A stretch of 63,006 nucleotides of DNA, counting the filler, from Octopus bimaculoides (lineage: Eukaryota), in NCBI RefSeq assembly GCF_001194135.2. It is 6 parts of 5 records of this genome, joined end to end, with 100 filler letters (N's around TTAATTAATTAA, not from the genome) between each part and the next. Parts side by side here need not be neighbours in the genome. Positions count along the whole stretch, not along the records: positions 1 to 12,202 come from NC_068996.1; positions 12,303 to 38,483 come from NC_068983.1; positions 38,584 to 44,316 come from NC_068981.1; positions 44,417 to 55,786 come from NC_068983.1; positions 55,887 to 60,669 come from NW_026349582.1; 1 more part is not named here. The stretch is one strand, 5' to 3'. The notes under the pieces are model-generated. The model made no database searches and was not told the origin of the DNA. It saw only the letters and a program-made list of their open reading frames with translations. Below, piece by piece: positions 5,125-56,996 of this stretch; position 1 is the first letter of the stretch, and the number at the start of each line of letters is the position of its first letter. The translations under genes and the position numbers were made by a program.

Positions 5125-5404
5125 CACACAACCGTGCACATTCGTTTTGGGATCACCGCTAATTTATTATCTCCCCTTCTTCCTAGCTCTCCTGTGTGAC
5201 CCTTCTGTCCGGCGTTTACCATGATAGATTGCTAGCCACTACACATTCTTTATTTTCTCTCCTTGTTTCTTTCAGTGTTCCTTTCTGTGGAACAGCATAG
5301 GCTCGAAACGTTAAAGACTTTTCACTTCCCGAGCGTAAAACTAATACATCTGTTTATTGTCTACACCACCTGCCTTCGTCTTTTTTTTTTGTGAATTCTC
5401 CCCC
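5125..5404 (+). mobile_element. Penelope-like element 3' end / pseudo-LTR with hammerhead-like motif
   Basis: GATCACCG...CTCCCC...TAGCTCTCCTGTGT matches the sequence after the GIY-YIG stop at 38927-39000. The downstream half matches 31288-31440. Confidence 0.75.
5281..5316 (+). ncRNA. Degenerate minimal hammerhead-like motif, CUGUGGA core
   Basis: CUUU-CUGUGGA-A-CAGC-AUAG-GCUC-GAAA-CGU-U-AAAG. Helix II has one mismatch. Confidence 0.5.
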
Positions 5405-5691
5405 NNNNNNNNNNNNNNNNNNNNNNNNNNNNNNNNNNNNNNNNNNNNNNNNNNNNNNNNNNNNNNNNNNNNNNNNNNNNNNNNNNNNNNNNNNNNNNNN
5501 NNNNNNNNNNNNNNNNNNNNATATATAAAGTAGTTGTATACTGCCAACTTAACGTGACAGTCCCAATAAGGGAATATACTACTGCTATTTAGCCCTAGGA
5601 AGCTGGACCGCTTCCTGTCGGCCTTGACACATTTCCTGTGTCCTTATGTTTGCGAGGAGGAGACAAACTCCTCCACCCAGCCTATCCAGCA

Positions 5692-5734
5692 TTCAGGGAC
5701 ACGTTTCTGAGTCTTTGCTCGTCATCAGCCTGAA
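5692..5734 (-). ncRNA. Minimal type I hammerhead ribozyme motif (slightly decayed)
   Basis: Minus strand UUCAGG-CUGAUGA-CGAG-CAAAGA-CUCA-GAAA-CGUGU-C-CCUGAA: perfect 6-bp helix I, canonical core, GUC site. Confidence 0.72.
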
Positions 5735-7517
5735 GTAGCACGACCAGCTGGTTGAAGGAGTCTGTTTAACACTCGCAAACATAGTATTTCAGTGAAACAC
5801 ATTCATATATATGTTTGTATGTATATATATATATATATATGCATTATGTATATAAATTTACAAATTTTATTTCGTAAAAGTATATAATTTAGGCATATAC
5901 AGTCCATTATTAATATGTACAAATACACACATAAATACACACAGCTATAACATCAGAATATCAGATACATGTCCACTTCTCTTCCATATAAACCTATTCT
6001 TCACTACGTTTTTTTCTTTCTTTCCATGTTCTAACACCATTGTCACACTGACTCACTCTCTTTTTTTCGCCTCTCCTTTACATTCTTTCACTTTCTTTTT
6101 CGTCTCTATAACAATGACCTCTCCTATTCTACTTAAAATATCTCACCGAAACAATATGACCTCCTCTGTTTACATTTCCTTTAAGAATTCAATTAAATTT
6201 CCATTTGGTTTCTTCACTGATCAGTTTATTGTTATTCCCTTAGTCTCATTTAACGTCAAATTTCTCTTCATGGCTTCCTTTTCAAATTATTTATTCTTCC
6301 TGCTTCCTTTCTTTCCCTTTCTCTCTCTCCTCTCTTTCTCTTTCTCTTACTCTTTCTAGTTCTCTTTTTTATTCTGTACTTTTAATGTCTCTTCTCTTTC
6401 TCTGTTTCTCCGTTCAGAGTATTTTTGTATTTTCTTTTTTATTCTCCATTTATCTCTTTCCCTCCTCTTTAAGTTACTTAATCAGTTTTCTTTTCTTTTT
6501 TCTCTATTATGTTTTTGCTTCTCCCTCTCTCACTCACTCATTCTCTCTCTCTCTCCTTCCTTCTCTCTTTCTCTTTCTCGCTTGCTCGATCGTTCGCTTG
6601 TTCGTTCTTTTTAACATTCATATGCACTTTCATGTATAGCTTCACGTCACACACACACTCACACACATACTCACACAGACACACACTCTCACACATGTTC
6701 ACATGCAGTCGTCTATGATTCTATCCTCTTCTCTTTCTCTACATCTCATCTGTATTATTTTAAATTTCAGTTTTCATTGTACAACTGTTGTCTTAGAGGT
6801 TTTGTTGCAACAAAATAGCAAAGCCAAACACGGCTTTCTGATCTTCGAGTATAATACCCACAAAATCTTACAACAACCTCCTTCTCTCTCCCTTTCGGTC
6901 ATTCTCTCTACGTCTCCTTAAATGCCTCCACCCCGAACATGCCTGACGTAATGGAAAATTTATGCTCTTGGCATTTTCATTGTCGGTGATTTTGTTAAAT
7001 CCAGAAACGTTATTCCTACCATCATCACCAACCATGAGCATAACATGAGAGCATATATATGATGGCTTAAAGTAGCACCCAAATGTTCCTCAAATCGCAT
7101 CCTAACGTTTCAAATATGAAAATCAGATATTTGATTTTCAAGTGCTACGTTCACTTTAAAGAACGAAATAGTTATGGCTGTAATATTTCCTTACTTTCCT
7201 TCCTGTAACTTTCGATTGAAAGAGAACTCCAGGAAAGATGAAAGAGAACTTCAGGAGTAATCGGTTTGAAGATAGTGAGATGAAGGAAGCTGTAAAAAAA
7301 GGGTCTTGGATACCTTCACTTTAGACAAATTCTTTAGGGCCTTCAAGAAAGTGAACTCAGAGGATCATATTTTTGAAGGAGATGAGAGTTTTAAACTTCT
7401 TTGAAATTAATAATGTCTCATCTGGAAAAGTCTTAAAACCCCGGGAATCCACCTTGTGTACATACATACATACATACATACATACATACATATGTACACA
7501 AATATATACATACATAC

Positions 7518-8525
7518 AAGTGCATCCCATCACCAAATTTGCATAAATGAGGCCGATAACATCATAAGACTTGGAAGGAAGCTCCTTGAGCAGCATTCCT
7601 TGTCTGATAATCTCGAATACATGATCAAAGACGTCGCAGAACGCTAATGCAACATATCATCAGATGAAAAGATGAGCCTATATGAGCAGAAGACTATGCA
7701 TAGATATGTTAGTATAAAGTTCCGGGATGATCATCAAAGCAATCTATCATGGACCAATAACCTGATTACTACCCTTACGCTTTGAAAGGTATGCATTTGC
7801 AATCCAGGAACAGGAAATATCAACCAAATACTTGATGTACAAAAGGGATAGAGATCCAAGAAAAGTGGCAAAGTATGAAAACCGATGCAGACTTTGTGGA
7901 GTAACACCAAAGATATCATCCACGTCATAAGCCGTATTATCTACCGATGAGACATGTAGCTAGGACACTATATAAGAAAATCCATTGGAAGGGTAATACC
8001 CGAGGGAAAAATATAAGAACCCACAATATGGTAGAAGCAATAGCCACTCATAAAAAAGGAATACTGGTGGAATGTACCAGTGAACGTCTCAATAAAATGT
8101 AAGCACAACAGACCTATGATGATTTGGGATATAGAAGAGAAACTGCGTACAGTTGAGGAAATCAGCGGCCCAGCGGATGTTGACATAAAGCTGAGGATCA
8201 GTGGAAAAGAGAATACCTACGCAGAACTATTGAGAAATATGCAGTTATTCTATCCAGATTACAAGTTCAGGTTTATAACTGTAATTATTGGGGTCCTGGC
8301 TATGTAACGCACTGCCTAAATACCTATCTTGAGAAATTAGGCTTCTCACAACTAAAAAGGAGAATGCTAATTCGAAGACTACAAATCCAATCCATCAGTG
8401 GAACTGTAAAAATCTGTAAAACTTTCCAGAATTTTATTTAAGTATACATGAGCATATCTAGATATGGAAGTATGCATGAGAGTACATACATAAAAGAAAA
8501 CATACAAATCTGCACGTATACAAAC
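7518..8525 (+). mobile_element. 5'-truncated RLE-type (R4/Dong-like) non-LTR retrotransposon, C-terminal part
   Basis: AIQEQEISTKYLMYKRD...ENRCRLCGV..DIIHVIS (CCHC remnant), then KHNRP.MIWD..EK...EIS.PAD (RLE region) and GTVKICKTFQ near the end. Flanked by (TACA)n on both sides. Confidence 0.82.
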
Positions 8526-55893: not shown

Positions 55894-55945
55894 CATTCTG
55901 AAGAGATCTGCCAAACCATTTGGCACATCGAAACGTACGTAAATG
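55894..55945 (+). ncRNA. Type I hammerhead ribozyme motif
   Basis: CAUU-CUGAAGA-GAUCUGCCAA-ACCAU-UUGGCACAUC-GAAA-CGUACGU-A-AAUG: 9 of 10 bp in helix II, palindromic ACGUACGU helix III, GUA site. Confidence 0.75.
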
Positions 55946-56681
55946 ACTCATTATATAATCTCCACACAATTAAATCAATGGCTAACTAGCCCAGTTGACT
56001 TGCTTCTTCTTGTGTTTGTTTCTCCACTCTCCACATAACTATAATTATAAACTGCGGTTTAAACAATAAATTACCTGCCTCTGGATACCTTCTAACGAAG
56101 ACGGTACCCACACAAGTAATTCCCAGGAGTGCCTCCGGATTTAAATATCCCCTGGTTGCTTGGATACTTCAGACTACCCCTGAAATATTGAAGCAATCCT
56201 ATCATTTACCTATATATATATATATATTTTACTGTAATGAGTATATATGTCACTTGAATACAGAAGTTGTTTGTGGTTATTTAATTGACGTGTGTGCATG
56301 TGTATACATGTATATGTGTGTGTATTCATATATAATGCACGCACATACCCACACAGAGCCAGTCAGTGATTGAACTACCACGAAATTGCACAAACTACTA
56401 AAAATTGCACCTAAGCAATTTTACAACAGAAAGCCTTTGACGTAGATAAGGATTAGAAGGTACCGCCTGTGAGGTGTTGCCATGGTTGCAACGTGTGTGT
56501 GTTTGTGTGTTTGACCACACATATCATTTACATATTTCAAGGAATATCTGATAAGAATATTTTACTAACTACTGCATATACCACATTGACACTGAACAAT
56601 TCTGGAGTTGAAAAACCCACAAAGCGAACCGAAACGAATAGAAAGACATAAAGAAATAAGAGCAAGTGACAGGTAAATACT

Positions 56682-56816
56682 ATCTATCTATCTATCTATC
56701 TATCTATCTATCTATCTATCTATCTATCTATCTATCTATCTATCTATCTATCTATCTGTCTGTCTGTCTGTCTGTCTGTCTGTCTGTCTGTCTGTCTGTC
56801 TGTCTGTCTGTCTGTC
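56682..56816. repeat. Compound (TATC)n(TGTC)n microsatellite
   Basis: Directly visible. Confidence 0.95.
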
Positions 56817-56886
56817 TCTAAATCTACCTATGTATGTATATGCTTTGATCAATGAGACGAACAGATGGAAGATACGATAACTTTAT

Positions 56887-56996
56887 TAATCATGACAATT
56901 GTTTCGACCCATTTAGCATCGATCCCTCACGGGTGGTGTAATTGTCAACTTCTTTAGGGGCATCCCTCGGTGCGGATGTGTCTCATCAGTTGATAA
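56887..56996 (-). ncRNA. Hammerhead motif with 77-nt helix II domain
   Basis: UUAUCAA-CUGAUGA-GACACAU...AUGGGUC-GAAA-CAAUUGU-C-AUGAUUA. Palindromic ACAAUUGU helix III, GUC site, helix I with 5 of 7 pairs. Confidence 0.65.

Follow-up and report, generated by a model that had tools for sequence, protein, structure and literature searches.

Nine type I hammerhead motifs of seven families in an Octopus bimaculoides sequence window, most likely decayed ends of Penelope-like elements

Minimal hammerhead ribozymes (min-HHRs) occur in the pseudo-long terminal repeats (pLTRs) of metazoan Penelope-like elements (PLEs), as described by Cervera & de la Pena in 2014 (PMC4209133). Under the published double-hammerhead model, paired palindromes unite the GAAA of one copy with the UH of the other, and reviews (PMC6765202, PMC7761336) likewise describe PLE hammerheads with a short palindromic stem III that cleave as dimers. 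Two further systems are close enough to be considered: non-LTR retrozymes, whose type I hammerheads are canonical (PMC7229834), and elements of Schistosoma resembling short interspersed nuclear elements (SINEs), which combine a Pol III promoter with a hammerhead (PMC6765202). Here, a stretch of 63,006 nt from the genome of Octopus bimaculoides (GCF_001194135.2; 'the window'), consisting of six pieces joined by N44-TTAATTAATTAA-N44, was analysed after a sequence-only reading had listed eight hammerhead motifs in it and proposed that their palindromic helix III sequences form a family-specific dimerisation code. The window was found to carry nine hammerhead copies belonging to seven families (A-G). 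As sequences, these are genuine type I hammerheads; most probably they represent the dispersed, mostly decayed pLTR ends of at least seven PLE families, or of non-autonomous elements dependent on them, and the variety of their palindromes likely comes from the pairing mechanism and does not form a code.

All eight motifs of the earlier list were recovered at the same coordinates and on the same strands, on pieces 1, 2, 4 and 5, and both their grouping into six families and their palindromes were confirmed. The list was incomplete, as a ninth motif (family G, nt 2239-2304(-), palindrome AUUGCAAU) had been overlooked. The window is rich in AT, with microsatellites throughout, and nine motifs per 55,977 non-N bases is a high density, but one for small repeat-rich scaffolds, hence not a genome-wide figure. 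A strict descriptor (CUGANGA, an optional extra base, helix II of at least 3 bp, a perfect palindrome and helix I at 3/5) detected five sites, compared with a mean of 0.08 (maximum 1) across 100 dinucleotide shuffles, a count far above chance by the shuffle control suggested with the original list. When U6 was also permitted, six sites were found, compared with a mean of 0.11 (maximum 2) across 100 dinucleotide shuffles. When 179 decoy cores were searched for in the window itself, the mean was 0.04 sites (maximum 1), and order-5 Markov sequence gave 0.06 sites. With the palindrome rule removed, five of the six window matches were palindromic; in Markov sequence, 2 of 66 matches were. The remaining window match, at nt 8191, is probably a chance match and lies within a stretch read as the remnant of a retroelement open reading frame (ORF); like those at nt 20485, 23265 and 26764, it was discarded as a chance match of loose descriptors. 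The copies at nt 5281 and 5692 were missed by the strict scan because their first helix II pair is broken. A loose descriptor gave 10 matches, compared with 2.6 in 30 shuffles, and was the sole descriptor to recover nt 2239-2304(-).

The possibility that the motifs are chance matches within repeat-rich DNA draws on two circumstances. The descriptor was adjusted once the sites were known, the initial version, without the extra base, having caught one of the eight; and Rfam returned no significant hammerhead, either among the matches listed for the window (150 of 306) or in further scans, where nt 55895-55944 reached 12.2 bits (E 4.4; gathering threshold 34). Rfam does not detect these hammerhead variants, however, and the scans are uninformative for them. 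The three independent nulls gave 0.04-0.11 matches where 5-6 were observed, the palindromes are enriched even when they are not required, and the broken pairs of families B and G are restored by the family consensus and by an inverted copy, respectively. Chance is refuted for families A, B, D, E and F by the shuffles, the decoy cores and the Markov null, and as an account of the motifs in general it is barely credible.

The earlier description of all the motifs as minimal holds for families A (nt 5281 and 31320) and B (nt 25309 and 45189) but not, by helix geometry, for C, D, E and F. Only A and B carry an extra base between positions 9 and 10.1 and a loopless palindromic helix III (ACGU). In families C-G the extra base is absent and helix III is 6-8 nt long; in D, E, F and G the palindrome measures 8 nt and the helix II domain 25-77 nt. 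With the min-HHRs of PMC4209133, A and B share the extra base after A9, the G10.1-C11.1 pair, the loopless palindrome and a helix I of 4-5 bp. Also in common with that published set are the U-rich 5' flank of family A, the scatter of copies as single units, the presence of several families in one genome, pairs on opposite strands at a distance of 100-700 bp and, in some taxa, longer palindromic variants. The window motifs differ from it in the U6 of family A and in the far longer helix II domains of D and F, and the parts of supplementary file 2 of that paper that were searched hold no octopus entry. The core CUGANGA ... GAAA ... UH is present in both copies of B and in C, D, E and F. It is altered in A, which has U6 (CUGUGGA in both copies and in the read consensus), and in G, which has C4; these two families act like, or derive from, min-HHRs but are core variants. 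The G10.1-C11.1 pair is intact in seven of the nine copies, being broken at nt 5281 and 5692, and five of the nine (5281, 5692, 30815, 56887 and 2239) have a broken core-adjacent pair or a private core change.

Family A is represented by two pLTR fragments, nt 5163-5404(+) and nt 31289-31439(+), which match at 86% over 160 bp; the second terminates at a (TA)n run. The hammerhead of copy 1 (nt 5281-5316(+)) has CUGUGGA at nt 5285-5291 followed by the extra A, ACGU, a broken first helix II pair and a predicted cut after nt 5312. That of copy 2 (nt 31320-31357(+)) has CUGUGGA at nt 31325-31331 with the extra A, a 4-bp helix II, ACGU and a predicted cut after nt 31352. At nt 1336-1488(-) lies a diverged sequence that is related to the 3' tail of family A and has no recognisable hammerhead. 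Of family B, copy 1 (nt 25309-25354(-)) is a minimal hammerhead with CUGAUGA and the extra A, a 6-bp helix II, ACGU, a 5-bp helix I and a predicted cut after nt 25314; copy 2 (nt 45189-45234(+), predicted cut after nt 45229) lies within a headless unit (nt 45102-45288(+)) that matches copy 1 at 91% over 188 bp and stands directly behind the (TAA) tail of the 3' end of another retroelement (nt 44417-45135(+)).

The remaining families are single copies. Family C (nt 5692-5734(-)) is of canonical-type geometry, with a helix I of 6 bp, a helix II of four positions, a C10.1-A11.1 mismatch and a predicted cut after nt 5698. The palindrome ACGUGU reported for it is indeed there, and is self-complementary solely by way of two G-U pairs. 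Family D (nt 30815-30906(-)) has CUGAUGA, a long helix II domain, the palindrome AUGGCCAU, a mismatched second helix I pair and a predicted cut after nt 30824. Family E (nt 55894-55945(+)) has CUGAAGA, ACGUACGU, a 4-bp helix I and a predicted cut after nt 55941; it stands at a scaffold start, hence its 5' context is missing. Family F (nt 56887-56996(-)) combines CUGAUGA with a 77-nt helix II domain, ACAAUUGU, a mismatched first helix I pair and a predicted cut after nt 56894. In family G, C3 is at nt 2297, the core reads CCGAUGA (U4C), the palindrome lies at nt 2254-2247 and the predicted cut follows nt 2246. Its first helix I pair is broken, and the motif is supported by an inverted partial copy, which restores that pair.

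Remnants of PLE proteins are present in the same window. A broken reverse transcriptase (RT; nt 3258-4130(-)) was identified by RT+GIY-YIG proteins used as tblastn queries (E 1e-24 to 1e-19), by 71 relatives and by the Pfam matches of these relatives, and a frameshifted C-terminal GIY-YIG endonuclease (nt 38593-38923(+)) by an Atlas value of 0.94 to GIY-YIG clusters and 40% identity (E 2e-21) to protein P0043. The RT+GIY-YIG proteins matched by the two remnants are the same. In Pfam, the relatives score 18.7-20.8 bits for GIY-YIG, slightly below the cut-off of 22.6, neither fragment gave a match when eight window frames were searched against Pfam, and a homolog search with the GIY-YIG fragment for longer proteins returned none. 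The start of the copy 1 fragment of family A (nt 5163-5197), about 85 nt upstream of the hammerhead, matches the sequence where the GIY-YIG frame ends (nt 38966-39000) over 35 bp at 88.6% (E 6e-7).

The surroundings of the motifs also recall PLE insertions. Inverted copies lie on the 5' side of G, D and copy 1 of B, and (TA)n or (TAA)n adjoins families A and B. Inverted 5' copies and microsatellite sites are given as the PLE insertion pattern in PMC8557442, and this agreement points to PLE ends. In that account of endonuclease-positive PLEs (Craig et al. 2021), the likeness extends to 5' truncation, an adjacent inverted copy, a bias towards microsatellites and a GIY-YIG domain at the C terminus preceded by a Cys motif, on which the window protein might be labelled Neptune-like. 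The differences are that no full-length element is present in the window and that the inversion point of D recurs across contigs. Since one octopus is reported to have 31 recently active PLE families (PMC13282606) and one coral genome 16 hammerhead families (PMC7229834), seven families in one animal genome are to be expected. The earlier statement that PLE-type hammerheads of several families populate this genome is supported, and read and contig alignments show families A and B to be very abundant.

Two of the inverted copies form foldbacks. That around G spans nt 2117-2557 and repeats, in inverted orientation, the hammerhead's 3' half and its tail, a 5' inversion of the PLE type; that around D (nt 30445-31277) has arms of about 350 bp with 88% identity and a 128-nt loop. 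It might be thought from the length and identity of the D arms that the foldback units (D, G and C) are DNA-transposon-like inverted-repeat elements with a hammerhead in the loop by happenstance, the more so as the opposite-strand joint near nt 30817/30931 recurs in 2 and 4 contigs under two organism labels, and in one read. The inverted arm of G, however, contains half of the hammerhead, which fits an inverted copy with 5' truncation but would not be expected if the arms were terminal inverted repeats; in the stretches searched, neither D nor G has a flanking direct repeat of at least 7 bp, and the pattern is one described for PLEs (PMC8557442); such an origin is unlikely. The recurrence of the D joint may mean that inversion favours this point, that the loci are orthologous, or that the foldback spreads as a whole unit.

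If the motifs are PLE ends, the diversity of their palindromes would need no special cause. By the published model, two copies carried on the same tandem transcript of an active element would join by their palindromes and exchange helix I strands, and the resulting double hammerhead would excise a unit-length RNA. Any self-complementary sequence would suffice, so that old families would drift to differing palindromes, while a loopless helix III admits only four palindromes, mostly ACGU in practice. Family specificity would likely owe as much to the shared transcript and to helix I as to the palindrome. The single copies in the window, each without a nearby partner of the same family, are likely inactive.

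The sequence-only reading had gone further, in proposing that palindromes were selected to differ among co-resident families, so that activation occurs within families only, and that families sharing ACGU could activate each other in trans. In the published model GAAA and UH come from different copies, and therefore helix I (or II) must form between copies too, a deduction from topology. Between A and B, helix I cross-pairing reaches three unstacked positions of six and 0-1 of six, compared with 4-5 of six within families, and helix II cross-pairs at 1/4 and 3/4 positions. In-register dimers scored +16.2 kcal/mol relative to monomers for A x B, and +2.9 and +4.3 kcal/mol for the A and B homodimers; overall, 20 of the 21 heterodimers scored higher than both of their own homodimers. 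The two most abundant families tested thus share ACGU and yet fail to cross-pair in helix I, leaving cross-activation without support, and an ACGU self-duplex is worth merely -1.7 kcal/mol. The four 8-nt palindromes of D, E, F and G do fit a code better, all being distinct, without full cross-pairing, and having self-duplex energies of -6.4 to -11.3 kcal/mol. There are, however, 64 possible 8-nt palindromes, and by chance alone four unrelated families would in most cases have different ones.

Published genomes and the decay of family B also speak against selection. ACGU occurs in 29 of the 56 motifs in Fig S3 of PMC4209133 (a hand count on machine-read text), and in the alignment of that paper 8 of the 11 species with at least two families have families sharing a palindrome, a hand count that omits the D. 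virilis intron variant and concerns a descriptor favouring loopless motifs. Varied palindromes, with a dimer stem of up to 10 bp, were given in 2011 (PMC3088659, Fig S8 legend) and tabulated in 2014 (PMC4209133). In family B, the changed share of contig depth is much the same at the five CpGs of the body (palindrome, 11.5-14.7%; C11.1/G12, 10.4-16.6%; three flanking sites, 9.1-15.6%); they decay alike, and therefore genomic B copies are unprotected at the palindrome, where decay appears neutral. Differing palindromes do exclude mixed dimers by base pairing, without sign of selection for exclusion. A selected code, together with cross-activation among ACGU families, is very unlikely, varied palindromes being what the published pairing mechanism would produce.

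Several observations nevertheless weigh against the PLE-end reading, and some of them favour its rivals. The 35-bp match at family A is the sole direct link here of the hammerheads to a PLE protein, and a longer local alignment there scored 71, compared with a shuffle maximum of 66. C, E and F show no PLE link, and D and G are tied to PLEs by the inversion pattern only. The D x E heterodimer (+6.8 kcal/mol) is level with the D homodimer (+6.9), because the helix I 5' strand of E happens to fit the 3' strand of D at five of six positions; in the model, D and E would be kept apart by helix III alone, as a code would have it. The Schistosoma SINE hammerhead, moreover, is reported to cleave in trans as well as in cis (PMC6765202), which is again in favour of a code. 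The energy model has no term for the hammerhead core and cannot score a helix-II-swapped geometry, and under the constrained fold not even the homodimers of A, D and E formed helix I. Finally, neither of the RNA checks proposed earlier gave a positive result: no pile-up of read ends was seen at the predicted cut sites of A, D or B, fragmented RNA-seq with about 6% of each run examined being a weak test for cleavage, and no recurrent head-to-tail joint was present for A, B or D among the rows listed.

Family C adds to these points. It sits at the apex of a rod-like hairpin with inverted arms (nt 5645-5783(-)) whose fold is unusually stable (z = -6.2; 0 of 200 shuffles), while minimum free energy folds of eight other window stretches gave no significant z-scores. 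Together with its canonical geometry, this resembles the retrozymes of PMC7229834, and some families (C above all, perhaps D-G) could be non-LTR retrozymes, with canonical monomer-cutting hammerheads and small circular RNAs, that borrow PLE enzymes. The 8-nt palindromes would permit a 2-bp monomer helix III, and most invertebrate retrozyme hammerheads are reported to cut as monomers (PMC7761336). The hammerhead of family C has a broken first helix II pair and no Rfam match. Unlike retrozymes, the window motifs do not stand in tandem arrays, no tandem copies of any family being present in the window and no tandem repeats of 150-450 bp around any motif; the RNA depth of D is about 12 or less, with no head-to-tail joint among the rows listed. 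We regard a retrozyme origin of these families as possible but doubtful, and dispersed PLE ends as the better explanation.

Family B deserves separate mention. Its fuller unit (nt 25248-25613(-)) consists of a short inverted head copy, a tRNA-like head (nt 25512-25585), (AAT)n, the hammerhead and a tail, and is flanked by a 9-bp direct repeat (nt 25248 and 25605). The head is a weak match to the Rfam tRNA model (12.6 bits, E 4.1, positions 8-63 of 71), with box A- and box B-like motifs recognisable by eye, and ARAGORN found no tRNA in it. The joining of head and body is seen beyond copy 1 in 261 RNA reads that make up a loose end at nt 45126 and have as their consensus a variant form of the 3' end of the head; these reads may come from few loci. 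In joining a tRNA-like head to a hammerhead, family B resembles the Schistosoma elements with their Pol III promoter; it differs from them in its PLE-type minimal hammerhead, its (AAT)n spacer, its PLE-type inverted 5' copy and its non-tandem occurrence here (PMC6765202). From its structure, family B is a candidate PLE-carried SINE.

Family A, for its part, is distinguished by its core. Its U6 is found in none of the 56 published min-HHR motifs of PMC4209133. For another change at this position, A6C, a shifted ion preference is described (PMC7151607). A metagenome scan for the U6 motif (CUGUNGA) gave six matches, of which one fits fully, at nt 2467-2494(-) of contig L004, which on our own reading is fish-like: its palindrome is ACGU, position 17 is C, and the sequence of its 5-bp helix I is unlike that of family A. 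No PLE ORF was found in L004. The other five matches, without palindrome and helix I, were discarded as chance. Taken together, it is conceivable, though we would call it tentative, that family B is a SINE with a tRNA-type head and a PLE-type minimal hammerhead, present in tens of thousands of copies and mobilised by Penelope enzymes and not by a long interspersed nuclear element (LINE), and that family A has spread at very high copy number with a U6 core, a natural variant seen again in the fish-like contig, where helix I is different and fully paired. In literature searches, neither a heterodimer code nor an A6U hammerhead nor a hammerhead SINE from an octopus came up in any paper, but the key 2017 paper on dimer cleavage was outside their coverage and absence from print is not established. 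That work, by Lunse, Weinberg and Breaker, reportedly describes small PLE hammerheads that cleave as dimers, and it may already cover heterodimers or core variants such as U6.

Read and contig data bear on both families. RNA runs were chosen by species label. For nt 30797-31435, 2,780 of 12.9 million reads aligned in run X21 and 2,436 of 12.0 million in X22, almost all on family A. The cleavage base of family A is changed from U to A in 30% (X21, X1) and 60% (X14), both bases being allowed. Core position 6 shows no change among the 40 of 184 difference rows listed, and the loose-end consensuses (224 and 178 reads) carry U6 too; U6 is likely the majority base of the family, with a minority of A possible. 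For family B (nt 45060-45320), 28,006 and 31,749 contigs aligned under two organism labels, in both of which the family is clearly very abundant, contig counts not being copy numbers; the RNA reads that aligned numbered 6,702 and 5,027. Across nt 45150-45234, changes specific to RNA were seen, including at core U4: T>C reaches 10-25% in RNA compared with 0.1-2.3% in contigs, and A>G 7-9% in RNA reads while nearly absent from contigs, the DNA not being matched to the same animal. These are likely due to A-to-I editing of repeat-derived double-stranded RNA. T>C is equal in both mate directions; the libraries therefore look unstranded and strand balance is uninformative, and the equal RNA depth in both mate directions was likewise rejected as strand evidence.

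The window contains several other repeats. A degenerate 4-bp satellite of about 7 kb (TTCG/ACGT type; nt 31660-38483), with gaps and strand flips, fills the end of piece 2. The retroelement 3' end at nt 44417-45135(+), which closes with the (TAA) tail ahead of family B copy 2, and another at about nt 8120-8320(+) are presumably from R4/Dong-type elements with a restriction-like endonuclease; two frames at nt 44422-45019 gave no Pfam match. A broken LINE reverse transcriptase (nt 27759-29221(-); RVT_1, E 7e-12, from Pfam searches of two frames at nt 28398-29041) is taken to be RTE-like. At nt 54285-55786(+), an ORF1-like frame with a Cys/His knuckle is followed by an APE endonuclease (Exo_endo_phos at nt 55376, E 7e-8) and truncated by the scaffold end; we assume that it belongs to an L1/Tx1-like element, as its 5' part. 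Another short interspersed repeat is represented by a cluster of at least eight fragments, lying in both orientations, at nt 19470-20877, 24808-25028 and 43560-43656.

Varied palindromes and many hammerhead families per genome were already published between 2011 and 2020, and the present findings add new families to that class. A selected dimerisation code would have been a surprise, and the evidence points the other way. If family B is indeed a PLE-carried SINE, it would widen the known pairs of SINEs and their partner elements. What PLE hammerheads need in order to cut is still described as unexplained in vivo (PMC7761336), and the nine natural variants from the octopus, including the U6 core and four 8-nt palindromes, provide a panel for the cleavage requirements of PLE hammerheads.

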